DNA of 63,990 nt, the filler included, from Folioceros fuciformis (lineage: Eukaryota): assembly GCA_049999805.1 (NCBI GenBank). It is 11 parts of 11 records of this genome, joined end to end, with 100 filler letters (N's around TTAATTAATTAA, not from the genome) between each part and the next. Parts side by side here need not be neighbours in the genome. Positions count along the whole stretch, not along the records: positions 1 to 17,260 come from JBNGIO010004634.1; 10 more parts are not named here. One strand, 5' to 3'. Shown here piece by piece: positions 2,811 through 41,480 of the stretch. Each line of letters starts with the position of its first letter. The first letter of the stretch is position 1. The translations under genes were made by a program, and so were the position numbers. The notes under the pieces were generated by a model. The model made no database searches and was not told where the DNA came from. It saw nothing but the letters and a program-made list of their open reading frames with translations.

Positions 2811-5720
2811 TCACGGTCGACCCTCACAACTGTAAAAACCACCTGCGAATCGATGCACACGATACCCATCCCTTACAACAATGTGTCTTTCTTCAAGCCT
2901 TGACATAATTTCCGTGTAACTATGGCAATCACTGCACATGCGTAGATTCTTCGTTACCACCAGGGGTGTCCCACTCTCAGTGTTCAGCAGACCAAACGCT
3001 AGGGCTAGCTTCTCAGCGTGCCCACAGAGGGCATCTTCCTTTCCCTTCTCAGACAGAGGCTTCAACACCAATTTCGTCTGAGGTACGTGTGCCGCCCTTC
3101 TTCCTTCACACGTGAATTCGTGCTCTCTACCATAACAGCAATATCATCTCCTCTTTCTCCCACCGCAAATGTATGTACCTGCTTCTTCACCTCAATCGTC
3201 GCCACTGCAGGTTTCTTGTTAGCTCCTGCTGCTCTGCGCTGTGTTTCAATCCTGTCTACATCGCTCCACATACCTGCATCTGCGTAGGCATTGGCCATGA
3301 GCACATACGCAGACGCCCTCTGAGGGTCCAGCCTAACAATCTTTTCAAAACACCACACCGCCCTCTCTACATCCCCGTAACTCTTGCAGGCATTCAATAA
3401 AGACGTCAAGCCCACAACACTACTTTGGCCCTCGCATGATAATAGCATCTTCTCTGCCTCATCTAAGTGGCCAGCACGCCCAAGAAGATCAAGCATGCAG
3501 GTGTAATGCTCAACAGTGGGTTTGATGCCATGCTGTTCAGCCATGGACTCGAAGTATTTGCGACCCTCGTGGACCAGTCCAACGTGACTGCACGCTGCTA
3601 AAAGGCAAGTAAAAGTAGCATCATCTGGCTGAATACCGCCAACTAGCATCTCCTCAAAACAACCTAGTGCCTTGTGACCTTCATCATAAGCACCATACCC
3701 AGCTATCAGGGCAGTCCATGTGACCACATCTTTTGTCGCCAAGCTGTCAAAAACCCGGCGTGCACCTACCAGTTCACCGCATTTTGCATACATGTCCACC
3801 AGGCCGTTGCCCACCACTACGTTATCCAGCAGTCCTCTTTCGACGATCTGTGAGTGCAATTGCATGCCCTTCTGAAATGCACCAGTGCTTGCACAGGCCT
3901 TTAGAAGGCAAGCAAAAGTAACCTGGTTAGCCACAATGAGGCCCGCCTCCTCCATTTGTCCATACACAACAAGCGCCTTGTGGCCGAGTCCTTGCTCGGC
4001 ATACCCAGCTATCAGCACGGTCCATGTAATCACATCCTTTGTGTTCATGCTGTCAAAAACCTGGCGTGCACCTTCCAGTTCACCACATTTCGCATACATG
4101 TCCACCAGGCAGTTGCCTAGCACTACGTTATCCAGCAGCCCTCTTTCAACAATTTGTGAGTGCAGCTGCCGGCCCTCGTGCAAGTCCCCAGTGCTTGCAC
4201 AGGCTTTCAGAAGGCAAAGAAAAACTACATGATCAGCCAAATTCAAGCCTGCCTCCTCCATTCGTCTGTACACAACAAGTGCCTCATGCCCCATCCCTTG
4301 CTTGGAACACCCTGCGATCAGCACCGTCCATGTCACCACATCCTTTGTAGCCATGCTGTAAAAAACCTGGCGAGCAACGTCCAGTTCGCCACATTTCACA
4401 TACATGTCCACCAGGCAGTTGCCCACCACTAAGTTATCCATGAGTCCTCTTTTAACAATCTGTGAGTGCAGCTGCCTGCCCTTCTGTAAGGCACCAGTGC
4501 TTCCACACGCCTTCAGAAGGGAAGCAAAAGTAAACTGGTTAGCCAAAATCAGGCCCGCCTCCATTTTTCCATACAGAACAAGCGCTTCTTGGCCGAGCCC
4601 TTGATGTGCATACCCAGCAATTAGGGAATTCCATGTCACCACATCCTATGCGGCCATGCTGTCGAAAACCTGCTGTGCACCTTTCATTTTGCCACATTTT
4701 CCATACATGTCCACCAGGCAGTTGTTAACAAACAAGTTAGTGAACATGCCAGTCTGCACCACATCACAGTGCACTTTTCTGCCAGATTCCAAGGCGGCGG
4801 CCAATGCACAAGCTTGAAGGGCAGCTACAAAGACGTGGGCATCCGCCTTCATTCCTGAGCTCCGCATCTCGTGGTACAGTTGTACGGCCTCCTTGGGTTT
4901 CCCGTGCTTAACATATGCAGAGATTATGGAAGACCACATGAAGACATTTGGTTTCCTCACCTTGGTGAACACATCCATTGCCTCGTGCAGCCTACCTTCA
5001 AACGCATACATGCGCAAGATGGTTCCCCAAGTATGAACTCGACTCGTACCCAAGTTTGGCGGTGAGATCATGAACTCGTCGACCCAAAACCAAATCCTTC
5101 TTTGCTGTACACAATTTCAGCCCAGTGTACAACAGAGATACAGAAACACCAGAGTCGCTCTGCACCAGAGATTCCAGGGCTCCCACGGCCTCAGAAAGCC
5201 TCCCCTGGTGGCACAATAAGTTCACGGTCCCATCTGTTCCCGGGCCCATTTCCGATCCAGCAGGCCTACCAGGTTCAGGATTGACTGGAGAGCTGGACTC
5301 TGAAACAGAATGACCATGGCCCATCTGCATATCCAAGGAAACGAGCTGCTCATCAACCCAAGCTGGCTTAAACGTGTTGTTCAACCACAACACGTCGCCG
5401 CACCCCTTACGCCGAAAGTTAGGCTAACGGGAGCTCTTCTTGTCTCGTCGGTTATCCCACCACATGGTTGGGTCCAGGAAAAATTGTTGCCACAAGTGCT
5501 CCTGCTCCTGGCGACGCCCATCCTTGGAAATCTGGTCCCCAAGCACACACTTTGTCGGGAGTGGAGTTGCTGGGATCCTTACGATGCTACATCTGGAGGC
5601 CTTGTTTGCTAGGGGTTGACTCCCTAAGATGAGGTCAGCGGAAGCTTCTGGTAGACTCCCAGTACGCACACCAATTTTTTGCTGGGTTCACAACGGGTCC
5701 GATTGCCATACTGCAGGCAT
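2811..5720 (-). pseudogene. PDF-motif + PLS-PPR + E1/E2 + DYW:KP (GRP-ending) RNA editing factor pseudogene
   Basis: Colinear with 6135-9347 from ATG 5720 (MPAVWQSDPL). Lesions: TGA 5688-5690, TAG 5424-5426, 2-bp deletion near 5020, TAG 4646-4648, 2-bp insertion near 3088. C-terminus KKPAVATIEV...HAEKLALAFG...CSDCH...SCEGRP. Confidence 0.93.
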
Positions 5721-6134: not shown

Positions 6135-9100
6135 TCACGGTCGACTTTTGCAACTACAACGACCTGCTGCGAACCGATGCACACGATACACATCCCTTAC
6201 AACAATGTCTCTTTGTTCAAGCCTTGACATAAGCTCCGTGGAACTGTGGCAGTCACTGCACATGCGCAAATTCTTCGTTACCACCAAGGGTGTCCCACTC
6301 GGAGTGTTCAACAGACCAAACGCTAGGGCTAGCTTCTCAGCATGCCCACAAAGAGCATCCTCCTTTTCCTTCTCAGACATGGTCTTCAACACCAATTTTG
6401 TCTGAGGTACGTGACCTCCTTCTTGCTTCAGACGTGCATTTGTGCTCTCCAGCTTTAGGGCAATATCCTCTCTTTTTTCTCCCACCAGAAATCGATGTAC
6501 CTCATTATTCACTTCAATGCTGGCCACTGCTGGTTTCTTAGTAGCTCCAGCTGCCCGTCTCTGCGTTTCAATCCTGTCTACATCGGTCCACATACCTGCA
6601 TCTGCATATGCATTGGCCATGAGGACATAGGCGGGCGCCTCCTCGGGGTGCAGCTTAACAATGCTTTCAAAGCACCACCTCGCTCTCTTTACATCCCCGT
6701 GACTTTTGCATGCATTCAGCAGCGACGTCAAGGCCACAACGTTGGTTTGGTCCTCGCAAGATAATAGCATCTCCTCTGCCTCATCTAAATGGCCGGCACG
6801 TCCGAGAAGGTCAATCATGCAAGTGTAATGCTCAACGGTAGGTTTGATACCATGCTCATCAACCATGGAATCAAAGAGCTTGCGACCCTCGAGGACCAGT
6901 CCCTCGTGACTGCATGCTACCAGCAGGCAAGTAAAAGTAGCAGCATTAGGCTGAACACCGGCTACTAACATCTCCGCAAAACAAGCTAGAGCCATGTGAC
7001 CTTCATCACAAGCACCATACCCAGATATGAGGCCATTCCAGATCACCACATCCTTCGTCGGTAAGCTGTCAAAAGCCCGCCGTGCGGCCTCCAGCTTGCC
7101 ACATTTCGCGTACATGTCCACCAAGCAGTTGCCCAACACTACGTCATCCAGAAGTCCTCTGTCGACAATCTGAGAGTGAAGCTGTCTGCCTTTCTCTAAG
7201 GCACCCGTGGTTGCACAAGCCTTCAGGAGGCAAGCAAAAGTAACATGATCTGCCAAAATCAGGCCTTCCTGCTCCATTTGTCCATACACGACAAGCGCCT
7301 CTTGTCCGAGTCCTTGCTGAGCATACCCAGCTATTAGAGCATTCCATGTCACCACATCCTTCGAGGGCAAGCTGATAAAAACCTGGCGTGCATCTTCCAG
7401 TTCACCACATTTTGCATACATGTCCACCAGGCAGTTGCCCAGCACTACGTTATCCTCGAGTCCTCGTTCCACAATCTGTGAGCGGAGCTGCCTACCCTGC
7501 CGTAAGGCACCGGCACTTGCACAGGCCTTCAGAAGACAAGCAAAAGTGACATGGTTAGCCAAAATCAAGCCCTCCTGCTCCATTTTTGCATACACAGCAA
7601 GCGCCTCTTGGCTGAGTCCATGCTGTGCATACCCAGCTATCAGGGCATTCCACGTTACCACGTCCTTCTTCTTCATGCTGTCAAAAACCTGGCGTGCATC
7701 TCCCAGTTCACCACATTTTGCGTACATGTCCACCAGGCAGGTGCCCACCACAACGTCTTCCAGCAGTCCTCTTTCGATAATTTGTGAGTGTAGCTGCCTG
7801 CCTTTCTGTAAGGCACCAGTGCTTCCACATGCCTTCAGAAGGCAACCAAAAGTAGCATGGTTAGCTACCGTCAGCCCCTCCTGCTCCATTTCTCCATACA
7901 CAACAAGCGCCGCATGACCAAAGCCTTGCTGTACATACCCGGCAATTAGGGCATTCCATGTCACCACATTCTTTGTCTTCAGGCTCTCAAAAACCTGGCG
8001 TGCATCTTCCAGCTCACCACATTTGGCATACATGTCGACCAGGCAGGTGCCCACCACTACGTCATCCAGCAGTCCTCTTTCGACAATACTTGAGTGAAGT
8101 TGCCTGCCCCTCTGCAAGGCACCGGTGCTTCCACATGCCTTCAGAAGGCAAGCAAAAGTAACATGGTTAGGCAAAAGCAGCCCCTCCTGCTCCATTTGTC
8201 CATACACACCAAGCGCTTCATGTCCGAGGCCTTGCTGTGCATACCCAGCAATCAGAGTGGTCCATGTCAGGACATCCTTTGAGGCCATGCTGTCAAAAAC
8301 CCGGAGTGCATCTTTCATTTTGCCGCATTTCGAATACATGTCCACCAAGCAGTTGCCAACAAATAAGTTGGGAGGAATGCCACTGTCCACCACATCAGAG
8401 TGCACTGTTCTGCCCGATTCCAAGTCGGCTGCCAATGCACACGCTTGAAGAACAGCTACAAAGACGTGAGCATCCGCCTTCACTCCTGAGCCACGCATCC
8501 CATGGTACAGTTGTATGGCCTCCTTAGGTTTCCCATGCTTAGCAAATGCAGAGATGATGGAAAACCACATGAAGACATTTGGTTTGCCAACCCTGGTGAA
8601 CACATCCATGGCCTCCTGCAGCCTACCTGCACGAGCATACATGCGCAAGATATGGTTCCCCAAGTATGCGCTCGACTCGTACCCAAGTTTGGTAGTGAGA
8701 TCATGAACTCGACGCCCCAAAACCAAATCCTTCTTACCTGTACACAGTTTCAGAACATTGTATAACAGAGACTCAGGCACAGCAGAGTCGGTCTCAGCCA
8801 GAGATTCCAGGGCTCCAACGGCCTCGGAAAGCTTCCCCTTCAGACATAACAAGCTCACGGTTGCAGCCGTCATGAGGCCCATTTTCGATCCTGCACGCCT
8901 GCCAGGTTCAGGCGTAACCGGAGAGCTCAACTCGGAAGGCGAGGCAACAGGGCCCATCTGCATATTCAAGGAAATGAGCTGCTCATCAACCCAAGCTGGC
9001 TTGGACTTGTTTAACCACAGCACCTCGCCGGACCCCTTACGCCGGAAGTGAGGAGAACGAGGGCCCTTCTTATCTCGTCTGTTATCCCACCACATGGTTG

Positions 9101-9347
9101 GGTCCAGAAACAATTGTTCCCACAAGTGTTCCTGCTCCTCGCAACGACCATCTCTGGAAAATCTGTCCACACCCACACCTTTTCTCAGAATTGGAAGTGC
9201 TGGGCTCTTCACACTGCTGCATCTGGGGGCTTTCTTTGCCAGGAGTTGACTCCCTAATATGAAGTGGGCGGGAGTTCCTTGAAGAATCCCTGCACACATA
9301 CCGATTTGCTGGGTGCACAATGGGTCCGATTGCCACAATGTACCCAT
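6135..9347 (-). CDS. PLS-class PPR protein with N-terminal OSB-like PDF motif and C-terminal DYW:KP deaminase-like domain (candidate U-to-C organellar editing factor), 1070 aa, intronless
   Basis: About 21 P/L/S motifs, P2-L2-S2-E1-E2, KPAVASIEV replacing the PG box, HAE(x)nCSDC zinc site, ends SCKSRP; N-terminal LWEQLFLDPTMWWDNRRDKKGPRSPHFRRKGSGEVLWL..KPAWVDEQL. Confidence 0.95.
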   Translation of the reverse strand: MGTLWQSDPLCTQQIGMCAGILQGTPAHFILGSQLLAKKAPRCSSVKSPALPILRKGVGVDRFSRDGRCEEQEHLWEQLFLDPTMWWDNRRDKKGPRSPHFRRKGSGEVLWLNKSKPAWVDEQLISLNMQMGPVASPSELSSPVTPEPGRRAGSKMGLMTAATVSLLCLKGKLSEAVGALESLAETDSAVPESLLYNVLKLCTGKKDLVLGRRVHDLTTKLGYESSAYLGNHILRMYARAGRLQEAMDVFTRVGKPNVFMWFSIISAFAKHGKPKEAIQLYHGMRGSGVKADAHVFVAVLQACALAADLESGRTVHSDVVDSGIPPNLFVGNCLVDMYSKCGKMKDALRVFDSMASKDVLTWTTLIAGYAQQGLGHEALGVYGQMEQEGLLLPNHVTFACLLKACGSTGALQRGRQLHSSIVERGLLDDVVVGTCLVDMYAKCGELEDARQVFESLKTKNVVTWNALIAGYVQQGFGHAALVVYGEMEQEGLTVANHATFGCLLKACGSTGALQKGRQLHSQIIERGLLEDVVVGTCLVDMYAKCGELGDARQVFDSMKKKDVVTWNALIAGYAQHGLSQEALAVYAKMEQEGLILANHVTFACLLKACASAGALRQGRQLRSQIVERGLEDNVVLGNCLVDMYAKCGELEDARQVFISLPSKDVVTWNALIAGYAQQGLGQEALVVYGQMEQEGLILADHVTFACLLKACATTGALEKGRQLHSQIVDRGLLDDVVLGNCLVDMYAKCGKLEAARRAFDSLPTKDVVIWNGLISGYGACDEGHMALACFAEMLVAGVQPNAATFTCLLVACSHEGLVLEGRKLFDSMVDEHGIKPTVEHYTCMIDLLGRAGHLDEAEEMLLSCEDQTNVVALTSLLNACKSHGDVKRARWCFESIVKLHPEEAPAYVLMANAYADAGMWTDVDRIETQRRAAGATKKPAVASIEVNNEVHRFLVGEKREDIALKLESTNARLKQEGGHVPQTKLVLKTMSEKEKEDALCGHAEKLALAFGLLNTPSGTPLVVTKNLRMCSDCHSSTELMSRLEQRDIVVRDVYRVHRFAAGRCSCKSRP

Positions 9348-9897
9348 CGTTCAGGCACCACAGTCGAATGTGGCAGACCCTGAAAACTGAGTGTGACCAC
9401 ACGAAACGGCCGTACAGGTAGTCTAGAGGCGCATGGACACGACCAGGCGGCTTACACACCCGTGCCCTCTCCGCGAACTAAGCTACAGCCTTTCACAACC
9501 CAAGACAACGTTGGTGGGGACGACGAACGACGAGAGCAGCAGCGATGCAAGGAATCACCCAAAACTGACGGCTGCCCCACCACCCGAGCAGCTTCGTTGC
9601 CTATACGTGCAGCTTTCTTGCCTACAAGATTCGTATGTGATGATCCGTATGTGGCGAATGGCATCGAAACCCTCTCACATGCTATGTTCTTCCACCGTAA
9701 ACCGTAATCCAAACGGAATCCATGTTATATTGATTCACTTTTATTGTTTCAGTAAACATGATTTCTCAAATCAATTTTAAATTCCGGGCCGTCCCAGCAT
9801 GCTGAAACCCGTTAAAGTACCGTCCATGCCTCGTCCCAATGTGGTGACCAAACCTTGAATTAGAGTCACAAGGATATTATTATTTTTTGTTATTATT

Positions 9898-14447: not shown

Positions 14448-17260
14448 TTCCTGCCTGCCAGTGGAGACTCTATCCTATGACCTTGCTTCCACTGGCGGAG
14501 AGCGCAAGAGATGCCAAACAATGCGCATCATTAGCAGTGGCTCTTAGCGTGGATTTGAAGCGTCACATTTGCATTACTTACCTTTGGCTTGTTCGCATCC
14601 CCTATTGTTTGTTTGGTCCATCAACTAACCTATCGTTTCAGCAGACAAAGAAATGACAGTTAGAAACCCTAACTAAAGAAAACCGAAACATTTTTTTTTG
14701 AAAGAAGGGATTGGTGTCTGTTCATTCTTGCACCACTACATATCCATGAAGGTAGATGAGGGAGCTAGCTTGTTAAGGTCGAGATACACATGTATCCACC
14801 CCCTCCCAGGCTGTCACCCTCAACTAGTCCCCTGGACACGTTTTGTTAGTATCACTAATGAGCATTTGTCAGGAATAGCAAGATCGGAGCATAACTGACC
14901 TAACTATTTTTCTTTTCAAACCATAGTTTTTTGAAAGGAACTTAGCTAGTTCACGTATGTCCGATACTGAGAGTACACATAGTGTATCTGACCTTAGCTT
15001 CGACGGGTTCTTGGAGCCTGAGGGGGAAGAATACCTATAGGCTGCAAATATCTCCAGTTTCTGGACCAACCCACTTGTTGTACCTATCACAAGAACAACA
15101 ACCCCCTCCTTCATGTCACAACTGAAGGAGAAAGATAGGTTTAATGGGAAACTGTACCCTGTGTGGAAAGTGCGCATGAAAGCCCTCCTCATAGCCAGGG
15201 GAGTCTGGAGTGTTGTGGGTGGAGGATTTCCTGAACCGGATCCTCAGACCGGTAGCCAAGCTGATATAGATAAATGGACAGCTCACAATGAAGTTGCTGT
15301 AGCTGTCATTATCAATGGCTTGGATGCTCTTCTTGTTCCTGACGTTGAGTACCTAACCAAGGGCATCGAGATTTGGAATCAACTCGAGAAAACATATCAG
15401 GTTACTAACATCATGACCAAATGTGCCATATGGCAAGAATTCTACGCTATGAGGATGAAGGACGGGGACAAAGCGGGTGGATTTACCAGTAAATTTCGCC
15501 ACCTCTGTGCTAAGCTTGCCTCTTTCAATTACAAGATTGAGGAAGAACATGTTGTGGTCTAGATGTTGAGGAGCTTGCCAGCATCACTCCATCAGTTTGT
15601 TAGCTCGTACAACGGACCCTTGTGCACCTCACAGGCTGCTGTTGCTGCCGAGAATGCAAGCACCCTCATTGTCGACGACATAGTGGCTGCCTTGCATCAA
15701 GAAGAACAGAGCCGTTTGTTCTTTGTAGGAAACACAAGAGCAAAGGCTGACAAAGTGTTAGCTGCAAAGTTCAAGCCTAACAGACAAAAAGGCAAGAACA
15801 GTTCTAGTTCTGACTTTACCTCTTCAGGTACCAAGAAAACTAGTAACTGCAATTGGTGTGGGGCACCTAGCTACTGGGCACGCGACTGTCGGAAGAAGAA
15901 GGCAAGAGAACCCCAGCGGCAGTAGGCCACAAAGCAATCTGCTAGTGTAGCCTTGAAGGATAAGGGAGAAAAATCGAAAGCCACAATGAAGATTCTCACT
16001 ATCTGCCTGACAAGCACTGTTCATGATGTTGGGGATTGGTACCTTGACTCAGGAGCTACCACCCACATCTGCAACGACAAAACCTTGTTCTCCAAGCTAT
16101 CCTTGCATCGCATGAAGGACAATGTTCTGTTAGGAGATGAGCGAAGTAACTCTGGACTTTTTGTGGAGGGATATGGCACTTGTACCTTCATTCTCAATGA
16201 TGGATCTATACAACCTGTCGAAGGAGTCTTGAATGTGCCAGACATGGCAAAGAATCTTCTGTTGATGAGCAAGCTCATGCAGTTGCATGCGTATGAGATA
16301 CGCGTGACGGATGAGGCATGCTGCTTCTACAGGAAGACTTCTCCCTGTGTCTGTGTATTTAGAGGTTTTCTTGACTATGATCTGTACAAATTAGATTTGA
16401 GATGTTCTCCTGCCCACCAGTCAGCCTTCACAGTGAGCATGACTTCTAGTCAGCTTGCCTCATTATGGCATGTGCGTTTAGGGCATGCCAATAAAACCAA
16501 GTTGATAGATATGTCTAAGCACGATTGCAAGAGGGAACCATTGCCTAGCTGTTTTAAGGACTTACCTGTTTGTGAGTCTTGCATTCTTGCTAAACAGAAG
16601 GAACTTCCTTTCCCTAAGGCTGCTCACAGAGTGTCCTCAGTGTTAGGTCTTGTGCATGTTGACATTTCAAGTGAGATACATACACCTTCTTTAGGGAGGG
16701 CTTTGTATTACATGACTCTGACTGATGATTATAGCCGGTATTCATGGACTATTCCCATGCGATTGAAGAGCGACACCCTTGGCTGCTTTAGGGACTGGCT
16801 GCCAACAGTTCAACGTCAATCAGGCTGCCTACTCAAAGTATTGCGAAGTGACAATGGTACTGAATTTGTCAACAATGCTTTCGATGAGTACTTATATGAG
16901 CACGGCATCCAGAGGCACTTGATTGTGCCGTATACCCAACAGCAAAATGGCGTTGCTCAATGCAAAAGCCAAACCCTGCTGGGTATGATGAGAAGTATGT
17001 TGTTATGGGCTGGCCTTCCACAAGGGTACTGGGCAGAGGCTGTAGTCACAGCCACTTACATCTTGAACAGGGTCTTGACCAGTTCAATCAAGGGGAGGAC
17101 ACCCTTTGAGGTCTTCTAGCACCGTAAGCCTAGCTTACTTCACCTCCGGGTCTTCGGGTCTAAGGCTTTTGCCTATATTCATGCAGAGAAGAGAAAAAAG
17201 TTAGACAATCGTGCTCAAAGCCTTATTTTTGTCGGCTATAGTGAGCATGTTAAGGCTTAC

Positions 17261-17722: not shown

Positions 17723-19264
17723 ATGGCGAATGTGGAGGGGGCGACGGAGCCAGTGGATCTGAGCGAGGCGCTTGCTGCCGCGCTCGCCTCGCGTGCGTCC
17801 GAGCTCAAGGCGACTCCGAAGGATTTCAGTCTCGCCGCTATTCGGCGCATGCTGGAGAAGGATGTGAAGCTGGAGCCATTTTATCTGGATGAGCACAAGG
17901 GCCTCGTCAAGGATCTCCTTAGCGAATTCTTTTGCCAGGGAAGCGAGTCAGACGATGGCGCAGATGAAGATGCGCAGCCTGACTCTGCCGACGCAGCAGC
18001 CAAGATCAAGGTATCGGAACAGGAGGCTGAGGCGCACCCTGATCCAGCACCTGTACTAACGGGAGAAATTATCGGGGCTGCCGTGAAGAAGCGGGCCTCG
18101 TACGTGCTGGAGAATGTCGAGACTCTGACATTGGCCACATTCCGACGGTTGTTGGAGAGCGATCTTGGTTTGGAGGAGAAGGGACTCGATGCATTCAAGG
18201 GCTTAGTGAGCCAGCTGGTGGACAAAATTTTTGCCCAGGAAGTTGAAGAGGAGCCCCTTGCCGCTGCTCCCGGGAGGAAGCGGGCCAGGAACGGGGAAGA
18301 AAGCGCTGTGAAGAAGGGGGATAACAGCGAAGTCGACGGCAAGAGCAGCAAGAAGGTGCAGGATGTGAAGGCGAAGGCAGTCAAGAAGCCAGTGAGAAGA
18401 GGCCGGGTGGAGTTAAGCGATGACGACGAGGCTCCTGCTCCTAAGAAGATTCGAGGGAAGGCGGTGAAGCGAGGTGTGGACAGAGATGGAGACTCCTTCA
18501 CTGAACGGCAGAAGAGACCTAAGTTGGAAGTTCAAAAGGGAAGTGGTAACTCGAAGAGATCGAGCGCGCAGCAAGATAGCGCTTCAGGGAGCGAGGAGGA
18601 TACTGGCGAGGAAGGCAATGCCAGTAAGGGTAAGCCGAAGCAGGTAGCTAGAGGAGGGAAAAGGGGCAAGGCATCGAGCTCCAGGGAGGACAGTGAGGAT
18701 GGGGAGTCTGAAAGTGATGGAGGCAGCAAGAAGTCTCGCAACGCCAACGGGAGGAAGGCGTCGGAGCCGAAGCAGGGAAGTAGTAAACAAGTAGACCACT
18801 TGAAGAGCATTATTAAGGCCAGCGGTATGACTGTGCCTCCCAGCATCTACAAGAAAGCCAAGAATGCTCCAGCGGGTAAACATGAAACTGTCCTTGTGAA
18901 GGAGTTGGAATCATTGCTGGAGCGGGAAGGCCTGTCTGGGCAAGCTTCCGAGAAAGATATAAAGGCTGTTCGGAAACGCAAAGAGAAGCTGAGGGACTTG
19001 GAGGGGATCGACTCTAGCAACATACTTCCTGACCGTAGAGGTAGGCGGGCAGCCAGTGCCACTCTGTTTGCTCCTACGTACTCGCCGACTTCATCTGGTG
19101 ATGAAGATGAGGAAGCTGATGATAAGAGTAATGAAGATGAAGAGAATGATGCCGAAGGCGAAGAGGAAGAAGAAGACGGTGGTAGCAGCGGAGGGGAAGA
19201 CAACGAAGAAGAAGAACAGGAGGCGGACGAAAGCGAGGGAGGGGGAGGCGATGAGAGTGAATAG
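17723..19264 (+). CDS. Chz1/HIRIP3-like histone H2A.Z-H2B chaperone (CHZ domain), 513 aa, single exon
   Basis: Two DEK-C-like repeats (SLAAIRRMLEKD..LDEHK; TLATFRRLLESD..LDAFK), K/E/S-rich linker, CHZ-like DLEGIDSSNIL..RRGRR, acidic tail. Confidence 0.8.
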   Translation: MANVEGATEPVDLSEALAAALASRASELKATPKDFSLAAIRRMLEKDVKLEPFYLDEHKGLVKDLLSEFFCQGSESDDGADEDAQPDSADAAAKIKVSEQEAEAHPDPAPVLTGEIIGAAVKKRASYVLENVETLTLATFRRLLESDLGLEEKGLDAFKGLVSQLVDKIFAQEVEEEPLAAAPGRKRARNGEESAVKKGDNSEVDGKSSKKVQDVKAKAVKKPVRRGRVELSDDDEAPAPKKIRGKAVKRGVDRDGDSFTERQKRPKLEVQKGSGNSKRSSAQQDSASGSEEDTGEEGNASKGKPKQVARGGKRGKASSSREDSEDGESESDGGSKKSRNANGRKASEPKQGSSKQVDHLKSIIKASGMTVPPSIYKKAKNAPAGKHETVLVKELESLLEREGLSGQASEKDIKAVRKRKEKLRDLEGIDSSNILPDRRGRRAASATLFAPTYSPTSSGDEDEEADDKSNEDEENDAEGEEEEEDGGSSGGEDNEEEEQEADESEGGGGDESE

Positions 19265-20062: not shown

Positions 20063-22345
20063 TTAGTTATTCAATCGTACTCTTCCCATTCTTGTCGTGA
20101 ATGTATGCACCTCTTGGTCATGCAGAATCCAACTCCGGCCGGGCGTTTTCCATGCGCCCGCCAAGCGTCTCTTTTCCTCAACATCTTCCGCCTCAGGCCA
20201 CATCTGAGCTTGCCGGTAAATATTCGACATCAGGACATACGGAGAACTGTGGGAAGGTTCCAGACTCACAGCGCGGTCGAAAGCCCATCTCCCAGTCTCC
20301 ACGTCCACATACTTCTGGCAAGCACCGAGAAGTGCGCACCACACAGCCAAGTCCGGCTCCCTCGCCATGCCGACAACCAGGTCTCCAGCCTGTCTGCAGA
20401 GTCCTGCTCGCCCCAGGAGGTCTACCATGCTAGCATAATGCTCACTCCCGGGAACTATCCCGTAGTCCCTAACCATGGACTTGAAGCACTGTGCACCTCT
20501 TTCCACCATCCCTCCATGGCTGCAGGCCGAGAGCAGCGACGCGAAAGTCATTGCATTCGGCTCCGTCCCCGCTTGCCGCATCTCGTCATAACATCGAAAG
20601 CTCTCCTTCCAGCTCCCCGCCCGAGCATAGCCGGCAATCAGAGAGTTCCATGCCACCAAGTCGGGTTCTGGAAGAGAGTCGAACACGCGCTGGCCTTCCC
20701 CGATGCTTCCACATCTTCCGCAAGCAAAAATGAGGGCGTTTGCCACCGCAGCGCTCTCCCTGAACCCTCTCCTGCAGACCTCGGACTGGATGTGCATCAA
20801 AGGAGCTAGGGATCCCAGGCTACCGCAAGCATGCAGGAGCAGCAGGAAAGTGGACTCGTTTGGCTCCATCCCGTCCTCCTGCATCTTGCCATAAAGCTGA
20901 AGAACATGGCCGATCTGCTCCTCCTCCTGCTCCTGCTGCGCGTACCCTACAAAAATAGCATTCCAAGAAACCACATCACGCTCCGGTAATGCGTCGAAGA
21001 CAGTACGGGCATCGACCAGGGCCCCGGAGATGGAGTACGCATGAATCAAGCTGTTGCTGACGAACAGATCGCAAGCGCTGCCGTGTCTGGCAAGGTCAGT
21101 GTGGATCGTCTTTACCTTCTGCAGCGCGTGCATCTTGATGCACTCGGCATCAATTCGCGTGCCTTCTTCCTCAGCTGCAAGGATGCCGCAAGCCTTGAGC
21201 ACGCTCGCGAAGGTGCGGGCATTAGGGCTAACATCAGCCGCTCGCATCTGTGCATAAAGCTGCACGGCCATGTCCCCCTCCTTGTTGTGAGCATAGCCTG
21301 CGATCATGGAGTTCCAAGAAACGACGTCGCGATTTGTCATGGTGTCGAACACTTGACGAGAATCCACAACGTTGCCGCATGTCGCATAGACATGCACGAG
21401 AGTGCTACAAACGAACACGCTCGAGTTGCAACCCGTTTGGACGGCATGGCCATGAAGCATCTTGCCACGATGCAGGCATCGCAGCTTGACGGGGTGTCCG
21501 TCTACGCGACACTCTTCTTCCATGGCTGCAAGCCCGACACATCCTTTGAGCAGGCTGACGAATGTTCGTTCATCCGGGTTGACACCTTCGTGTCTCATCA
21601 GCCCATATAGCAGCAAGGCATCCTCGCACTGGTCCTGTTGGACATAGCCAGCGATGAGGACATTCCAGGACACCACATTACGGCATGGCAGTAGATCAAA
21701 AACATCCTGTGCATCCGCCATTCTCCCACAACTTGCGTACATGTCGAGCAGAGTTGTGGATACGAACGGATCAGAGTCAAGCCCATCCCTGACAGCGTGG
21801 GCGTGAATCCTCCTGCCTTCTTCCAGGTCTGCCGAGCTGCCGCATGCTTTCAGTAGACTGATGAAGACATACTTATTGGGGCGGACTCCTTCCTGCAGCA
21901 TTTGACCATACAGTCCCAGAGCTTCCTGCGCTTGCCCTGCTTTCGTGTATCCGGAGATGATGGCAGTCCAGGAGAGGACGGTTCGTTGCGGTAACCTGTT
22001 GAATACCTCGGCTGCATGAGTCATGCTCCCACATTTCACGAATGTCTTCACCAGAGATTCTCCAAGAAATCGATTGCTATCCAACCCATTTCTCACCAGG
22101 TGAGCATGCACTTGCCTCGCTTCTGCCAAGGCCCTCTTCTGGATGCACGCCTGCAACAGGTCACTATACGTGCGCACCGTCGGTATGCAGCCCTGTTGGT
22201 CGAGGTGGAGTAGAGTGTCGGACACTTTGCAGTCTCCCATCATGCTAGAATGGGAGGGCTTGCAAGCCTGGGCATAGGTAGCCCTGAACGCAGAACTGGC
22301 TGGCAGGGCACAGGAGGTCGTGGGTCGGAACACCGCACCTGGCAT
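20063..22345 (-). CDS. PLS-E(+) PPR protein with extended LL-type motifs, ending just after the PG box, 760 aa
   Basis: PLS triplets; two L motifs with about 16-aa inserts (AAMEEECRVDGHPVK; AAEEEGTRIDAECIK); E1/E2; KTPGRSWI..VHTF then stop. Confidence 0.93.
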   Translation of the reverse strand: MPGAVFRPTTSCALPASSAFRATYAQACKPSHSSMMGDCKVSDTLLHLDQQGCIPTVRTYSDLLQACIQKRALAEARQVHAHLVRNGLDSNRFLGESLVKTFVKCGSMTHAAEVFNRLPQRTVLSWTAIISGYTKAGQAQEALGLYGQMLQEGVRPNKYVFISLLKACGSSADLEEGRRIHAHAVRDGLDSDPFVSTTLLDMYASCGRMADAQDVFDLLPCRNVVSWNVLIAGYVQQDQCEDALLLYGLMRHEGVNPDERTFVSLLKGCVGLAAMEEECRVDGHPVKLRCLHRGKMLHGHAVQTGCNSSVFVCSTLVHVYATCGNVVDSRQVFDTMTNRDVVSWNSMIAGYAHNKEGDMAVQLYAQMRAADVSPNARTFASVLKACGILAAEEEGTRIDAECIKMHALQKVKTIHTDLARHGSACDLFVSNSLIHAYSISGALVDARTVFDALPERDVVSWNAIFVGYAQQEQEEEQIGHVLQLYGKMQEDGMEPNESTFLLLLHACGSLGSLAPLMHIQSEVCRRGFRESAAVANALIFACGRCGSIGEGQRVFDSLPEPDLVAWNSLIAGYARAGSWKESFRCYDEMRQAGTEPNAMTFASLLSACSHGGMVERGAQCFKSMVRDYGIVPGSEHYASMVDLLGRAGLCRQAGDLVVGMAREPDLAVWCALLGACQKYVDVETGRWAFDRAVSLEPSHSSPYVLMSNIYRQAQMWPEAEDVEEKRRLAGAWKTPGRSWILHDQEVHTFTTRMGRVRLNN

Positions 22346-22545: not shown

Positions 22546-25023
22546 ATGGAGGCCATCATCCTCGCAACTAGCTCAGCTTGTGCAGTGGGGTTGGATACTG
22601 GGTTCTGGCTTTACACTTCTTCGGCGTCTGTTATCAGGCGTAATGGCTGCATGATGCGATGCACTTCGTTCCCTCAAAGATCGACAGGGCCGCCCGCGGC
22701 AACAGCTTTTCTGGGTCCGACAAAGAGCGAGGACATGCAAACTGGCCATCTTCCTGCTACATCCAAAAGGGCCTGGATGAATAATGATGACCCTTGCAGG
22801 CCTGCAGGATACCAAAGAGCCGTAACGGCTGAGACTGTTACCGAACATTGTCAGGAGGGGCAGCTTGCGGAGGCTGTTGAGGCCCTGGGAATTCTGGTGC
22901 AGACAGATTGTCGTGTACCAGCATCACTGTTCTATACTACCCTGAAGAGTTGTGGGTTTAAGAAGGATTTGGTTTTGGGTCGCCGTGTCCATGCTCTTAC
23001 AGTGGAGCATGGGTATGAGGCGGACACGTTCCTGTGCAACCACATTCTGCGGATGTATGCTTCCTATGGTAGGTTGGAAGAAGCGATGGATGTGTTCACC
23101 GCGGTTGCCAAACCAGATGCCTTTATGTGGTCTTCCATAGTTTCTGCACATGTGAACCAGGGAGAAGCTAGGCAGGCCATACACTTGTATGATCGGATGC
23201 GGAGCTCAGGTGTGAAGCCTGACGGCCATGTATTTGTGGCAGCTCTTCAGGCTTGTGCCAGGGGAGCGGACTTGAAAGCTGGGCAGCAGGTGCATGCTGA
23301 TGTGTTGGCCAGTGCGGTTAAGCCTGATTTGTTTGTTTGCAATGCGTTGGTGGACATGTATGCAAAGTGTGGCAGCTTGGAAGAAGCTCATAGTGTCTTC
23401 GACGGACTAGACCGGAAGGATGTGGTGACTTGGACAGCTCTGATAGGTGGATATTCTCAGCAGGGCTTGGGTCTGAAAGCCCTTCAGCTCTACAGTGCTA
23501 TGCAAGAAGAGGGCGTGGCTGCGCCCAATTCCGTGACATTTGCTTGCCTCCTGCAAGCATGCGCAAGTGTGGGTGCCCAGGCTTTGGAGACGGGGAAGCA
23601 GCTTCATGACCAGATTTTGCGACGAGGGTTTCAGGGTGATGTGCTTGTAGCCAACAGTCTGGTGAACATGCATGCAAAGTGTGGCAGCTTGGAAGATGCC
23701 CAGCGAGTGTTTGAGGGCCTCGCTCAGAAAGACGTGGTTACATGGAATGCCATGATCGCAGGATATTCTCAACATGGCCTGGGGAAGGAAGTGCTTCGCC
23801 TCTTTCAGGCTATGCAACAGGAAGACACGATAGCGCCCGACTCTGTGACATTCCTGTGCCTACTGCAGGCATGTGTAAGTGTAGGTTTCCCCGCTTTGGA
23901 GAAGGGGAAGCAGCTTCATGCACAAATTAGAGAACGAGGGCTTCAAGCCGATGTGTTTGTTGCCAACAATTTGGTGAACATGTATGCTAAGTGTGGCAGC
24001 TTGGTAGACGCTCAAAGCCTGTTCAACGAGCTTTCTCAGAAAGATGTGGTAACGTGGAATGCCATGATTGCAGGATATTCCCAGCAGGGCATGGGGCAGG
24101 AAGCCCTTCGTCTTTACAAGGCTATGCAAGAAGAAGGCACAATTGCACCGGACTCTGTAACATTTCTGTGCGTCCTTCAGGCATGTGCGAATGTAGCAGC
24201 GTTGGACGTTGGACGAGAGCTTCATGCACGGATTGAACAGCAAGGGCTACTTCAAAGCGATCTGACATTAGGCAACAGTTTGATCAACATGTATGCAAAG
24301 TCTGGGAGCATGGTTGATGCACAACAGGTATTTCACGCCTTGCCTGAAAGAAGCGTTGTCACCTGGAATGCACTGATTGCAGGCTACACCCGCCAAGGAA
24401 ACAGCGACATGGTTTTTCACTTGTTTCACCGTATGAGCCAGCATGGGATACAGCCAGACGCCATTGCCTTCCTCAGTGTTCTAACAGCATGCAGTCAAGC
24501 AGGTTTAGTGGAGAAGGGACGAGAGTACTTCGATGCAATGAGCACATTCCACAGCATCACACCTACGGCAGAGCACTACACCTGCATGGTGGATCTCCTG
24601 GGTCGTGCAGGGAAACTGGAGGAGGCACTATATCTAGTGAGCACAATGCCTGTGAAGCCCGATGCTGCAGTTTGGCACACTCTACTGGGTGCTTGCCGAA
24701 AGTGGAGCAACGTGGAGGTGGGACGCCATGCGTTCGAGGAAGCAGTGAAGCTGGACAGCAAAGATGCCGAGGCGTACGTCTCAATGTCGAACATCTACAT
24801 GGGTGCCTCTAAATGGGAGGAAGCTCAGGAGATTCAAGCGAGGAGAATAGACATCCAGGCTTGGAAGCAACCGGGCCAGAGTTGGTGGACTGACATGGAG
24901 GGACTTGTGCACAGTTTTCTGGTTGCGGACAAGAAGCATCCAGAGAGTGGGGACATCTATGCCAAACTGAAACAACTCTTCTCCAAAATGGAAGAAGAAG
25001 AGTACTATATGATTGAATGGTGA
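22546..25023 (+). CDS. PLS-E+ PPR protein with PG-WW box and truncated DYW domain, 825 aa
   Basis: PLS triplets, E1/E2, KQPGQSWWTD..VHSFLVADKKHPES..IYAKL; no HxE/CxxC. Confidence 0.93.
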   Translation: MEAIILATSSACAVGLDTGFWLYTSSASVIRRNGCMMRCTSFPQRSTGPPAATAFLGPTKSEDMQTGHLPATSKRAWMNNDDPCRPAGYQRAVTAETVTEHCQEGQLAEAVEALGILVQTDCRVPASLFYTTLKSCGFKKDLVLGRRVHALTVEHGYEADTFLCNHILRMYASYGRLEEAMDVFTAVAKPDAFMWSSIVSAHVNQGEARQAIHLYDRMRSSGVKPDGHVFVAALQACARGADLKAGQQVHADVLASAVKPDLFVCNALVDMYAKCGSLEEAHSVFDGLDRKDVVTWTALIGGYSQQGLGLKALQLYSAMQEEGVAAPNSVTFACLLQACASVGAQALETGKQLHDQILRRGFQGDVLVANSLVNMHAKCGSLEDAQRVFEGLAQKDVVTWNAMIAGYSQHGLGKEVLRLFQAMQQEDTIAPDSVTFLCLLQACVSVGFPALEKGKQLHAQIRERGLQADVFVANNLVNMYAKCGSLVDAQSLFNELSQKDVVTWNAMIAGYSQQGMGQEALRLYKAMQEEGTIAPDSVTFLCVLQACANVAALDVGRELHARIEQQGLLQSDLTLGNSLINMYAKSGSMVDAQQVFHALPERSVVTWNALIAGYTRQGNSDMVFHLFHRMSQHGIQPDAIAFLSVLTACSQAGLVEKGREYFDAMSTFHSITPTAEHYTCMVDLLGRAGKLEEALYLVSTMPVKPDAAVWHTLLGACRKWSNVEVGRHAFEEAVKLDSKDAEAYVSMSNIYMGASKWEEAQEIQARRIDIQAWKQPGQSWWTDMEGLVHSFLVADKKHPESGDIYAKLKQLFSKMEEEEYYMIEW

Positions 25024-27294: not shown

Positions 27295-30200
27295 ACAAGC
27301 AACGTCAAACCTAGTATTTTGTACCAAGTGCTATATACTGCCTACAACCCCTTTATAGGGTATATCCTTCATTTCTTCTATCTCTGCAGGAGTGCTGGGG
27401 CACATAGAGGAACGTAATCGTTCGCCAGTTTGCATAGGGGTGTCAACAGGCTTACAATTCTGCATCTGATATTTTTCTAGCATATCAATAATGTACCTCT
27501 CTTGATGAAGAATGATACTATTGGAGTTAATGATAACCTGGATGCCAAGTAGATACTTGATAACACCATTGTCAGTCATTAAAAACTCCTTGTTGAGTTC
27601 ACTTTTGGTCAAGTTGAGAAAACCGAGATCATCGGAACAAACAACAAGGTCGTCAACATACAAACCCATGAAAAGGTGAGCGTTACCTTGCCATCTTATG
27701 AAGACACTGGAATCTACATGGGATTTAATGAAGCTGTTGCTAATGAGAAAGGTTTGCAACCTCTTATACCAGCCACGAGGCGATTGTTTTAATCCGTATA
27801 AGGTCTTGAGGAGTTTACATACTTTGTGGGCTTCACCAGGTTTAATATAGGCCTTTGGTTGTTGAAGAAAGATTGCTTCTCGCAGAACGCCATTCAGGAA
27901 GGCTGTTTGTACATCCATTTGATGTACGTGTAGCTTGTGGATGGCAGATGGAGCAAGCATGACTCTAAGCAAGGTAAGTTTCACAACTGGACTGAAGATG
28001 CTTTCCTTTTGATAGTCTAAGCCGTCCTTTTGTGTAAACCCCCGCGCAACAAGTCTGGCTTTGTACTTTGAAAGACTACCATCAGCATTATATTTCTTCT
28101 TTAAGACCCATTTACTCAACACGATACTTCTGCCAGAAGGAGGATCTACGAGAGTCCAAGTATTATTAGCAATAAGTGAGTTGAACTCTCGATCCATAGC
28201 AGCTTGCCACTCAGGGCCTTCGTCACCGTTAAGTGCTTCTCAAACGGCACAAGGATCACTGATAATGGAGACGGAGCTTGCTACTAGTCCACGGGAAAAC
28301 TCAAGGTCATCATAGTGTGTACTTGGTATTCCTTTATTTGCTCTTGATGAACATCTTAAACGTGGACCAGGTGAATCTGCAGGTGTAGGGGTTAGTAGCA
28401 ATTTGGCAGGAGCTTGTGCAGCTAAATTTGTGTCTGCTCCTTCGTCCCCCGATAGTGGCACAAGTCTGCTAGGGATTGGACGCGAGGCCAGATGAGGAGA
28501 AGACAACACACCGGTGGGAAAACCAGGCGTGGGAAGCTCATCACCGGGAGCCAGGAGTCGAGTGATAGAACCTGTAGGGGCCAGCATCAACGGCTAGAGG
28601 CCAGACCGCACCACCCAAAACCTACACCCCCTGAGGCGAGGAAGGGTTCGGACTGGAAATCCCAGGCCCAAGGCCAAAATCATCCTCAGTTGTGGAGGGC
28701 AGGAAGCGAACCGGAGTGGCAGGAGCATAGACACCACCAGGCGGAGGGGCGGGAGGCGGAGCTGAAGGAGGTGCAGCAGGAACAACAAGAATAGCACCAT
28801 CTTCAAAGGAGGTCAAAGCGGACTCAGGGCCATCTTGCCATGGGAGAGCATCGAGCAGAGTCGGAGGGGAAGAGGTGGGCAACAGAGACAACTCATCAAA
28901 TATGGCATTCCGAGCAAGAGTGATGCGTCGGGTGCCTCTGTCTAACAGACGATAGCCTTTGACATGATCAGAGTCACCATAACCAATAAAGGTCAGTTTG
29001 GTGGAGTGCGAATCCAATTTCTTCCGAAGTTTTGATGGAACATAGGCATACTCATCACATCCAAAAACACGAAGATGACTAATATTTGGCTTGCGTTCTG
29101 TCCAGACTTGATATGGAGTCTTGCCAGGAACAGTGGAATTGCTACAATGATTTTGCACATAACAAACAGTAGCAGTAGCTTCAACCCAGAAAGAATTTGG
29201 GAGATGGGCTGTAGCCAAAGAGCTCCGCACAGCATCAAGAAGTGATTTGTTATGCCGCTCGGCCTTGCCAAGTTGTTGATGGGCGTAAGGCACTATCTTT
29301 TGATGTTGAATGCCACAAGCAAGCAGGTGAGCTTCAAAAGCTTGGGAAGTTAATTCCTTAGCAAAGCCTCTGACTTATGAGTGAGAAAGTAGAGGGTGGT
29401 ATAGTGGCTAAAATCATCTAGAATAACAAACATGTACAGTCTACCTACAAGAGAAGGGGTCTGCATAGGTCCACATAAGTCAGCATGCACAACCTCAAGT
29501 AAATGAGTAGTGTGTGAAGTGGACCTGGCATAGGGTTGGCTATGTTGTTTCCCAACAAGGCCACCGCGGCACAAAGGCAAGTCAAACAAGGGGGGTAAGC
29601 CGACAACCATCTGTTGCTTCTGCATTCGATATAAGCCCTGGATATGAAGATGAGATAACCTCAAATGTCACAACATAGTTTGAAGACTGAGCTTGTTTGC
29701 AGTGACGAGACTGAATGAGGAATGACTTGATTTGGCAAAAACTAGATCCAAGTTACTGTCACTCGGAGGAACTAAGCCTCGAGCTATGGGATAGAGGCAT
29801 CCCACAGGATGACAAATAAGCTGTAAGCTCTGACCACTGCTTGCAGTCAGCTTGACGTGATAGCCTCGATGTGAAAAGATAATGAAGTTGCCAACCTTCA
29901 TTGTAGCTTGATGTGCAGATAGCAGATTTTGAGAAAGACTAGGCACATGTAGTACATCTTTTACATAGGCAGTAATGCCCTGTATCTGAATTTGTATTGT
30001 GCTCGTGGCAACACCCATAAGGGTGAAATTGTCACCAAGATGAACAGGTTTCTTCTGCTGTAAAGGAGCATATGTGAGAAACCAGTTTCTCCGAGGAGTC
30101 ATGTGCTAAGTGCAGCCACTCTCAAGGAGCCACCAATCGGAGAGGGGGTATGGTAACAAAATGGGAGAGTGAGCAGTAAACAAATAAGTAGGTGCCACTG

Positions 30201-40869: not shown

Positions 40870-41480
40870 GAAAAAAGCTGGCTTGAACTTGTTGTTCGAC
40901 CACAGCACCTCACTGGATCGTAAGGCCGGAAGTCAGTCGTCCCACCATGAGGTAGGGTCCAGAAAAAAATGGTTGCCACCAGTGCTCATGCTCCTGGCGA
41001 TAAGCGTGGTCTGGAACCCCGTCGCCACCCAGACATTTTCCGGGACATGGAACTGCTGGGCTCTCTGCACTGCTGCGCCTGGAGCGCGTTACCGATTCTA
41101 CACGTCTCCCAGGTTTAGGTAGGAGTATTTCGAGCGCTCGAGTTGGATGGAGAGGGGTCGTGATCCTTGCTAGTATTCAAGGAAACGAGCTTCGCAACAC
41201 CCTAATCGAGGTCAAATATGTGCTTCGGCCAAAGTACTCGCCGGACCCCTTACGCCGGAAGACGAGGGAATGGTGGGTCTTCCCACCTGGTTTGTTGTCC
41301 CACGACAAGGTTGGGTGCAGAAAAAACTGTTGCCACTAGTGCTCCTGCGTTTGGCAACGACTGGCATCGGTGGGAACGCTGTCCCTACTCGCACACGTTC
41401 AAGGAAGTGAACGTGCTGGGACTCAGATTCTTGACAATGCGGCGCTTGGAGGCCTTGTTTGCCACGAGTTGGCTCCTAAG
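40870..41480 (-). pseudogene. Two tandem degraded copies of the PDF-motif N-terminal module of the KP-PPR genes
   Basis: Copy 1 (about 40870-41090): QEHEHWWQPFF/LDPTSWWD..(P)DFR..EVLWSNNKFKPA. Copy 2 (about 41230-41480): QEH*WQQFFLHPTLSWDN..FRRKGSGE, sharing TCGCCGGACCCCTTACGCCGGAA with 9025-9047. Confidence 0.8.

Follow-up and report, generated by a model that had tools for sequence, protein, structure and literature searches.

PPR editing factors of the PLS class are usually described as a PPR tract followed by E and DYW domains, and the PPR class credited with U-to-C editing is DYW:KP. In this subclass, the N-terminal box of the DYW domain has a Lys-Pro pair instead of Pro-Gly (described in PMC11845758), the HxE...CxxC site carries HAE instead of HSE, and the C-terminal triplet is variable and differs from DYW (described in PMC9478123). 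U-to-C editing activity is known for synthetic KP proteins only (PMC9478123, PMC11845758). The designer KP proteins begin with a PLS triplet (PMC9478123).

[quoted passage not shown] Members of this domain family are recognized by a motif of about 50 residues with a conserved signature. By itself, the PDF motif of AtOSB1 reportedly suffices to bind ssDNA, and AtOSB2 reportedly forms a tetramer (both PMC6963530). For AtOSB1 and AtOSB2, a preference for ssDNA over RNA is reported (PMC4166229).

Here we analyse a stretch of DNA of 63,990 nucleotides from Folioceros fuciformis (assembly GCA_049999805.1), which as a whole is referred to as the window, and in which a PDF domain and a DYW:KP editing factor are encoded by one gene.

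A PLS-class editing factor with an additional N-terminal domain

An intact single-exon ORF at 6135-9347 (minus strand) encodes a protein of 1070 amino acids, P0001, with neither a stop nor a frameshift in its 1070 codons. From the N- to the C-terminus, the protein consists of a presequence-like segment, a PDF domain, a linker, a PLS PPR array, E motifs, and a DYW:KP domain. The ATG is located at 9345-9347. Since an in-frame TGA is found at 9351-9353, two codons upstream, Met1 is the earliest possible start within the exon.

Residues 1-69 (9141-9347) contain 9 K+R, 3 D+E, and 9 S+T, and residues 1-68 have a pLDDT under 50 in the full-length model. By this composition and predicted disorder, the segment is probably an organelle transit peptide. 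The PDF domain (residues 70-130; 8958-9140) is connected to the first PPR helix by a Ser/Pro-rich linker (residues 131-160; 8868-8957). In the full-length model, residues 127-158 have a pLDDT under 50 and the first confident helix starts at residue 161.

The PLS-class PPR array and the E motifs occupy residues 161-932 (6552-8867), modeled as helix pairs at high pLDDT. Pfam identifies PPR, PPR_1, PPR_2, and PPR_3, with PPR families at E 1e-102 to 1e-105, and E_motif at residues 883-945 (E 7.4e-13). The DYW-type deaminase follows at residues 933-1070 (6138-6551), with the Pfam family DYW_deaminase at residues 978-1067 (E 4.5e-33). We assigned it to the KP subclass using the criteria given in PMC11845758 and PMC9478123: a KP box, KKPAVASIEV (residues 937-946; 6510-6539), HAE within CGHAEKLA (residues 1000-1007; 6327-6350), CSDCH (residues 1030-1034; 6246-6260), and a non-DYW end, ...CSCKSRP. 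By its sequence, P0001 is thus a PLS-class PPR editing factor, with PLS array, E1/E2, and DYW deaminase, and a member of the DYW:KP subclass, with the KP pair, HAE, and a non-DYW end. The in-frame fusion of a PDF module to such a protein, as proposed in the original prediction, is present in a single ORF.

P0001 shares the PLS array, E region, KP pair, and HAE...CxxC site with the DYW:KP factors of hornworts, lycophytes, and ferns (GRP and DRH variants) and with the synthetic KP1-KP7, and its terminal SRP is close to the hornwort GRP variant of PMC9478123. In contrast to P0001, these factors and designs are described, in the published portions available to us, as a PPR tract with C-terminal domains, and an N-terminal PDF is not mentioned there. 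The combination of a specific PPR reader with a general binder or helper is shared with the RRM-PPR fusions (PMC13386178) and the trans-acting helpers MORF, ORRM, and OZ, but in those cases the accessory domain is other than PDF.

Homology of the N-terminal domain to the OSB PDF motif

The peptide that had been quoted for positions 8976-9140 is the exact minus-strand translation of that interval and corresponds to residues 70-124 of the ORF, with WWDNR at 9078-9092 (minus strand). A profile was built, as had been suggested, from OSB motifs only (137 PDF instances from 64 OSB/SSB-type proteins and zero PPR proteins). It matches the ORF with 72.8 bits and an E value of 5e-22 at residues 72-129, over profile positions 3-60 of 62, and has no match in six-frame translations of 20 shuffled windows. 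These two results exclude a chance match. As predicted, the module is genuinely homologous to the PDF motif of OSB proteins, and we regard the assignment of residues 70-130 as practically certain.

A phmmer search with a 76-residue fragment against 1,835,955,588 proteins yielded 561 matches at E<=1e-3, 131 at E<=1e-10, and 20 at E<=1e-30. The matches at E<=1e-10 are mostly proteins in which an SSB OB-fold is followed by C-terminal motif repeats, and among the 150 matches listed the Pfam SSB OB-fold is N-terminal to the motif copies in 42 (24 of 74 and 18 of 76). One match, P0128, is named 'OSB1, mitochondrial-like' (E 8.4e-11). In an alignment-based search, OSB1-4 names are found on at least 33 of the 120 relatives listed, and one listed relative bears the name 'Plastid transcriptionally active 9'. 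The identity of the PDF domain to OSB instances is 35-50%. Word-index searches with the single fragment and with residues 40-200 of P0001 returned no match, whereas the alignment query succeeded.

P0001 and the OSB proteins have in common a domain of about 60 residues with the signature W..F..P..WWDNR..K..P.P[D]F.[HR]K....LW....P.WV..L. In OSB proteins, 1 to 13 copies of the domain are located at the C-terminus, behind the OB-fold, whereas P0001 has a single N-terminal copy followed by the PPR array. Furthermore, no SSB/OB-fold is found in P0001 by Pfam, and His replaces the Asp of the triplet. Judged by this domain organization, with no SSB and an N-terminal PDF, P0001 has a domain in common with the OSB proteins without being one of them.

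No Pfam family covers the N-terminal 149 residues of P0001, and the PDB sequence search gave only a chance match (E 1.4). Because there is no Pfam model, the PDF domain is invisible to Pfam-based surveys; the domain-based survey of PMC13386178 has zero mentions of OSB or 'single-stranded'. Our literature searches turned up no account of a PDF-PPR fusion, although such proteins might be listed in the supplementary tables of PMC13386178 and PMC13393729, in line with the earlier impression that the architecture is undescribed.

Predicted structure of the PDF domain

The AF2 model of the PDF domain, based on a 54-sequence alignment, has a pLDDT of 84.3 and a pTM of 0.70 and shows a helix, a small sheet, and a helix. 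In the full-length model, built with 14 sequences only, the pLDDT of the PDF region is only 41-63, and the domain is flanked by stretches of pLDDT under 50. The first model and the low-pLDDT flanks support an autonomous fold. Foldseek against the PDB gave no usable match for the predicted fold (best E 3.4), nor did VIA-align against 48,161 chains (best Z 4.1), a result that does not make the fold new.

The lack of a match to a known nucleic-acid-binding fold is among the observations that would suit a protein-protein or oligomerisation module, joining the PPR protein to OSB proteins, other PDF-PPR proteins, or a nucleoid scaffold. The tandem arrangement of 1 to 13 copies in OSB proteins and the tetramer reported for AtOSB2 (PMC6963530) point in the same direction. 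However, the isolated AtOSB1 motif is reported to suffice for ssDNA binding (PMC6963530), and the 61 residues of the domain in P0001 include 7 aromatic and 10 basic residues, a composition typical of single-strand binders. We consider such a module unlikely.

The name-giving aspartate is replaced in P0001

In agreement with the original prediction, the intact gene reads Pro99-His100-Phe101, with the His100 codon at 9048-9050. P0001 retains the Pro and the Phe but does not have the name-giving Pro-Asp-Phe triplet. Among 237 non-PPR motif instances, 99% have Asp in the corresponding column and none has His. In group A, which comprises the nearest PPR-linked relatives of P0001, 16 of 17 instances have Asp there. 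Codon 100 is Asp in 12 to 41 contigs in each of four sequencing runs, and most paralogous contigs read Asp. From these comparisons, His100 may weaken the PDF domain in P0001.

The substitution raises the question of whether the domain works in the family but is a decaying relic in this copy, carried as neutral baggage after loss of the key Asp. The distribution of Asp described above would fit such a relic, as would the decay of other copies: the adjacent tandem copy is already a pseudogene, and more remnants are found at 40.9-41.4 kb. On the other hand, all other near-invariant positions are kept (W76, P83, WWD, R90, K93, P99, F101, L110, W111, P117, and W119), the 72.8 bits of P0001 fall within the 63-82 bits of the other PPR-linked instances against the profile, and the 1070 codons are intact. 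PHF also occurs in two unrelated matches, P0108 and P0130. A relic has only a small chance of being the correct explanation.

Further copies in the window and in sequencing runs

The tandem pseudogene at 2814-5720 (minus strand) is a duplicate of the whole gene, with presequence, PDF, PPR, and KP-type DYW regions interrupted by stops and frameshifts. Its PDF region, predicted with the reading PNF, was recovered by tblastn at 5268-5570 (minus strand; 69% identical). It reads '...SSR-stop-PNF...', with the in-frame stop inside the motif, and its halves match the OSB-only profile with E values of 1.5e-8 and 1.5e-6.

Two further modules had been placed at 40870-41480. Here tblastn finds two decayed presequence and PDF remnants at 40867-41359 (minus strand), one at 41231-41359 (E 1e-11, with a stop) and one at 40867-40974 (E 0.003). 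This bears out the prediction in part only: the degenerate pieces are present, but they contain stops and deletions, have no match to the OSB-only profile, and are not adjoined by a PPR body. A '(P)DFR' at about 41 kb was rejected as a retained motif, its reading frame differing from that of the motif remnant.

Together with many contigs of at least 90% identity over the motif in the four sequencing runs, the pseudogene and the remnants bear out the proposal that the module is multi-copy. All four runs consist of contigs of unrecorded kind. A 488-nt contig of run X1 is identical to 9069-9556 and spans the motif interior, the start codon, and 209 nt upstream; as a contig of unrecorded kind, it is evidence neither of expression nor of where a transcript ends.

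The PDF-PPR architecture in lycophytes and ferns

PPR proteins account for 5 of the 150 listed phmmer matches and 14 of the 120 relatives listed in the alignment-based search. They come from Adiantum capillus-veneris, A. nelumboides, Pteridium, and Diphasiastrum complanatum, and transcriptome-derived ORFs are among these fern and lycophyte PDF-PPR proteins. Eleven motif positions are invariant across 14 full-length PDF-PPR proteins, and the PPR-linked copies have a sub-signature, LWLN-S and KP-WVD. The PPR-linked PDF domains of P0001, ferns, and the lycophyte cluster on the motif tree. On this tree of 79 rows, the PPR-linked label requires 3 changes, against a mean of 20.7 for shuffled labels, and none of 500 shuffles is as low. 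A single PPR-linked clade is not rejected by the AU test (p 0.795), and neither is a single origin of the fusion. As judged from these sequences, the PDF-PPR fusion is an inherited architecture and not an accident of the locus.

The fusion had been proposed as a PDF-PLS-DYW:KP speciality, and in this respect the prediction is not supported. Both Diphasiastrum DYW proteins with an N-terminal PDF are classical DYW:PG proteins, reading PGCSWIEV, and the full-length fern PDF-PLS proteins end after an E-like region, without DYW. Since DYW:PG and DYW-less PLS proteins share the domain, its role is not tied to U-to-C chemistry.

The PDF domain is very probably part of the translated protein. Met129 and Met131 (MQMGPV...) lie just past the motif, and the pseudogene retains MQMG, so that one of these residues could be imagined as the true start, with the upstream frame a fossil insertion of an OSB fragment. 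Such a 128-codon open frame with a 72.8-bit match would not be expected to persist, however, and conservation of the fusion at the protein level extends to ferns and the lycophyte, including the transcriptome-derived ORFs. Moreover, a start at Met129 leaves no presequence-like segment. We consider an untranslated motif highly improbable.

In 7 of 15 PDF-PPR proteins, the motif begins no later than residue 21, and fern starts are at residues 14-21. So early a start leaves little room for a cleavable transit peptide, unless the models are 5'-truncated. This N-terminal position, the usual place of a presequence, could mean that the motif lies within a cleaved targeting sequence, or acts in import only, and is absent from the mature protein. 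The 10 D+E among the 61 residues and the confident fold of the domain are both unlike presequences, though; OSB proteins carry this domain at the C-terminus, and its residue-level conservation over OSB and PPR contexts is unexpected for a transit peptide. The probability of this scenario appears slim.

Proposed role of the PDF domain

The explanation that we favor, although at no better than even confidence, is that the PDF domain serves as an accessory single-stranded nucleic acid binder or nucleoid tether. The roles envisaged in the original prediction were tethering to ssDNA or R-loops, added RNA affinity, and action on ssDNA. The presequence would be removed at import, and the PDF domain would stay on the mature protein through a flexible linker of about 30 residues. 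By analogy with OSB proteins, the chances that it binds single-stranded nucleic acid there seem about balanced; as such a binder, it would act independently of sequence. As the PPR tract follows it in the protein, the domain would be placed 5' of the RNA element read by the tract, where it could raise general affinity and keep the substrate single-stranded. Alternatively, it could retain the editor at the nucleoid or the transcription bubble and thereby give it early access to nascent transcripts, a possibility suggested by the preference of OSB PDF motifs for ssDNA. The preference reported for AtOSB1/2 favors the DNA reading over the RNA reading but bears only indirectly on the PPR-linked form, and a role in RNA affinity would require this preference to have changed.

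A more far-reaching proposal, which we advance as speculative and rather improbable, is that PDF-PPR proteins form an ancient, hitherto unannotated group among the organellar editing factors, common to Folioceros, lycophytes, and ferns. The PDF domain would dock the editor on the non-template strand or nucleoid ssDNA for co-transcriptional editing, as an in-cis substitute for the helpers of seed plants. It would then be a component so far missing from the picture of the natural editing machinery, U-to-C as well as C-to-U, and one absent from the synthetic KP/PG editors.

The known range of the PDF domain now extends beyond OSB proteins. PMC9478123 discusses the low activity of designer KP editors and unknown factors, and the omission of the PDF domain may bear on the weakness of these editors. 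The lineages with PDF-PPR proteins are precisely those in which editing is very heavy and also runs in reverse, and a conserved N-terminal domain of nucleic-acid-binding pedigree would be a functional component new to the editosome.

An OSB-type PDF domain in a DYW:KP editing protein

The PDF-PPR-DYW:KP gene occupies positions 6135-9347 on the minus strand as a single open reading frame of 1070 codons. An in-frame TGA, read from the sequence, precedes its ATG by two codons. Pfam places PPR repeats throughout the encoded protein (P0001), followed by an E motif at residues 883-945 and a DYW deaminase at 978-1067 (E 4.5e-33), while the first 149 residues are without any Pfam match. The peptide in which the original prediction had recognized an OSB-type motif corresponds to residues 70-124, in exact agreement with the translation of 8976-9140. 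That the PDF region of the gene is not translated is a rival but very unlikely reading. Because residues 1-69 are basic and hydroxylated, with just three acidic residues, we infer that they resemble an organelle presequence.

Homology searches identify the motif at residues 70-124, with high significance at the sequence level, as a homolog of the OSB PDF motif. A phmmer search of 1,835,955,588 representative proteins with a 76-residue fragment returned 561 matches at E<=1e-3, 131 at <=1e-10 and 20 at <=1e-30. Among the 150 matches listed, proteins carry 1 to 13 motif copies, and in 42 of these proteins (24/74 and 18/76) a Pfam SSB OB-fold precedes the motif copies, an arrangement given as the OSB architecture in excerpts of PMC13393729. 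In its source, one match (P0128, E 8.4e-11) bears the name 'OSB1, mitochondrial-like protein'. A second search, with an alignment of eight PPR-linked motifs, gave 191 proteins at E<=1e-3 among 8000 scored candidates; at least 33 of the 120 listed have OSB1, OSB2, OSB3 or OSB4 in the source name, green-algal records also occur, and among the relatives is a protein with the annotation plastid transcriptionally active chromosome protein 9.

To avoid circularity, we built an OSB-only profile that left out every PPR protein (seed, a Drosera OSB1-like motif; 137 instances from 64 proteins with an SSB domain or OSB name). The predicted homology was borne out: the profile matches the window ORF with an E-value of 5e-22 (72.8 bits, profile positions 3-60 of 62) and finds no match in 20 shuffled windows.

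AlphaFold modeling of residues 61-134 from a 54-sequence motif alignment (mean pLDDT 84.3, pTM 0.70) predicts a long helix, three short strands (WWD, FRR and VL) and a C-terminal helix. In the full-length model (mean pLDDT 76.3), which rests on a shallow 14-sequence alignment, disordered residues 1-68 (pLDDT <50) precede the motif region, a second disordered segment spans 127-158, and confident helix pairs extend over 161-932. Of the domain's 61 residues, 7 are aromatic, 10 basic and 10 acidic. A less likely rival reading makes the domain a protein-interaction module. Comparison of the predicted fold with the PDB by Foldseek (best E 3.4) and with 48,161 chains by VIA-align (best Z 4.1) gave no usable match, a result that shows neither novelty nor function.

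The window's copy reads PHF

In the window's gene, the aspartate of the name-giving P-D-F triplet is replaced by histidine (His100). Among 237 non-PPR instances this column is Asp in 99% and never His; of the 17 PPR-linked instances nearest to the window's copy, 16 have Asp. The commonest motif difference in public contigs aligned to the gene is 9050 G>C, which changes His100 to Asp and occurs in 12, 41, 31 and 33 contigs from sequencing runs X1, X2, X3 and X4, respectively. The gene family thus has PDF and the window's copy PHF. Less probably, the domain is a relic in this copy; the remaining near-invariant motif positions are all retained.

Other copies and neighboring genes

A tandem pseudogene at 2814-5720 (minus strand) retains the presequence, a PDF motif with an internal stop, the PPR region and a KP-type DYW domain; the OSB-only profile matches its motif in two halves (E 1.5e-8 and 1.5e-6). 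Two decayed presequence and PDF remnants at 40867-41359 (minus strand) have no PPR body attached and could be a duplicated or captured 5' gene fragment.

Two further PLS-class PPR genes stand head to head at 20063-22345 (minus strand) and 22546-25023 (plus strand). They belong to the E and E+ types and have PG-like boxes; Pfam gives no DYW match in either, and the N-terminal PPR region of the second is similar to that of the PDF-bearing gene. Elsewhere in the window are Copia-type LTR retrotransposon pieces at 15986-17119, 27331-28197 and 51803-52471 (integrase, RVT_2 and gag by Pfam) and at 62435-63989 (a gag/protease-like ORF, judged by eye). The plus strand carries exons of a large Sec7-type ARF-GEF at 59853-61305 (Sec7 domain end and HDS region) and, at 17723-19264, a very acidic 513-residue ORF, rich in Lys and Ser, with no Pfam family at E<=1e-5. 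At 11 places within 17261-61432, N runs occur in pairs of 44, 12 bases apart, alongside 10-N and 100-N runs; these are masked or gap stretches.

PDF-PPR proteins in other plants

The PDF-PPR architecture is genuine and is found repeatedly, in three lineages of seedless plants. PPR proteins with an N-terminal PDF make up 5 of the 150 phmmer matches listed and 14 of the 120 listed in the alignment search, and come from Adiantum capillus-veneris, Adiantum nelumboides, Pteridium aquilinum, Diphasiastrum complanatum and other assemblies. One to three PDF copies precede the PPR tract. Among the relatives found, PPR is the sole recurring non-OSB context of the motif. A kinesin-motor protein of Coptis chinensis (P0030, 1526 residues) has three copies at 190-389, P0047 (Striga) joins SSB and PDF to an ICR-like tail, and in P0140 PDF adjoins a peptidase S41 fragment; these contexts may be gene-model fusions.

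The original prediction linked the fusion to KP-type editors, and the relatives do not support a KP-specific reading. Both DYW-bearing ones, from Diphasiastrum, are classical DYW:PG proteins (PGCSWIEV ... CSCGDYW). Seven proteins from ferns and other sources (P0009, P0165, P0098, P0216, P0232, P0247 and P0252) lack DYW and end after an E-like region, as does P0179 from Diphasiastrum. Four are uninformative on the C-terminus: P0101, P0105 and P0178 end inside the PPR array, and P0064 has unrelated C-terminal sequence. By the criteria in excerpts of PMC11845758 and PMC9478123, only the window's protein is of KP type among those compared (KKPAVASIEV, HAE, CSDCH and the end ...SRP, which resembles the hornwort 'GRP' variant of PMC9478123). 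Within the window, the module occurs at both loci of KP type (the intact gene and the tandem pseudogene), which represent a single duplication and allow no statistic; it is absent from the two E/E+-type genes.

In another, unlikely reading, the motif is part of the targeting signal. It starts within the first 21 residues in 7 of 15 PDF-PPR proteins, which is difficult to reconcile with an ordinary cleavable transit peptide unless these gene models are truncated. In these fern and lycophyte proteins (P0098, P0216, P0232, P0101, P0247, P0179 and P0064) the motif begins at residues 1-21 with almost no presequence, reflecting either 5'-truncated gene models or different targeting. In P0249 and P0256 (Diphasiastrum), the C-terminal half of another PDF motif lies upstream of the complete one (…EALWINNNRFNPHWVRARL), so two copies were once or are still present; P0256 starts inside this half-motif.

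The PPR-linked label requires 4 changes on a tree built from 261 motif instances, versus 22-24 in shuffles (ten printed of 200 run). A 79-row IQ-TREE tree, comprising all 24 PPR-linked rows, five rows that had been their neighbors and 50 others chosen at random from 237, requires 3 changes (shuffled mean 20.7; 0/500 shuffles as low). It groups the window with fern copies (15 rows, support 80) and the Diphasiastrum copies with one Adiantum copy (7 rows, support 95). A single clade of all 24 PPR-linked rows is not rejected (p-AU 0.795; 63 columns, low resolution). One or a few old fusions, then spread along with the PPR family, would fit these trees.

Possible role of the fusion

Excerpts of earlier work describe the PDF motif of AtOSB1 as sufficient for ssDNA binding (PMC6963530), AtOSB1 and AtOSB2 as preferring ssDNA over dsDNA or RNA (PMC4166229), and PDF domains as the part of OSB proteins chiefly responsible for binding ssDNA (PMC13393729). 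Because of this literature and the PTAC9-annotated relative, we give roughly even chances to an accessory role on this PPR protein. Attached by a flexible linker and positioned on the 5' side of the RNA that the PPR tract binds, the domain would bind single strands regardless of sequence, and would thereby add affinity or anchor the editing factor at the nucleoid.

Literature retrieved with the term 'PDF motif' includes none on PPR proteins, and OSB/PDF terms combined with PPR, DYW or editing terms retrieved no description of a PDF-PPR fusion, although older primary papers and supplements may differ. Among the matches listed, only the review PMC6963530 contains both a PDF-motif and a PPR term. 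In the retrieved text of a survey from 2026 that covers domain fusions of editing factors kingdom-wide (PMC13386178), 'OSB' and 'single-stranded' have 0 occurrences, as have 'PPR', 'pentatricopeptide' and 'hornwort' in that of a 2026 study of OSB family evolution (PMC13393729). The PDF domain itself is known and its conserved PPR context is apparently new, an architecture relevant to organellar RNA editing research.
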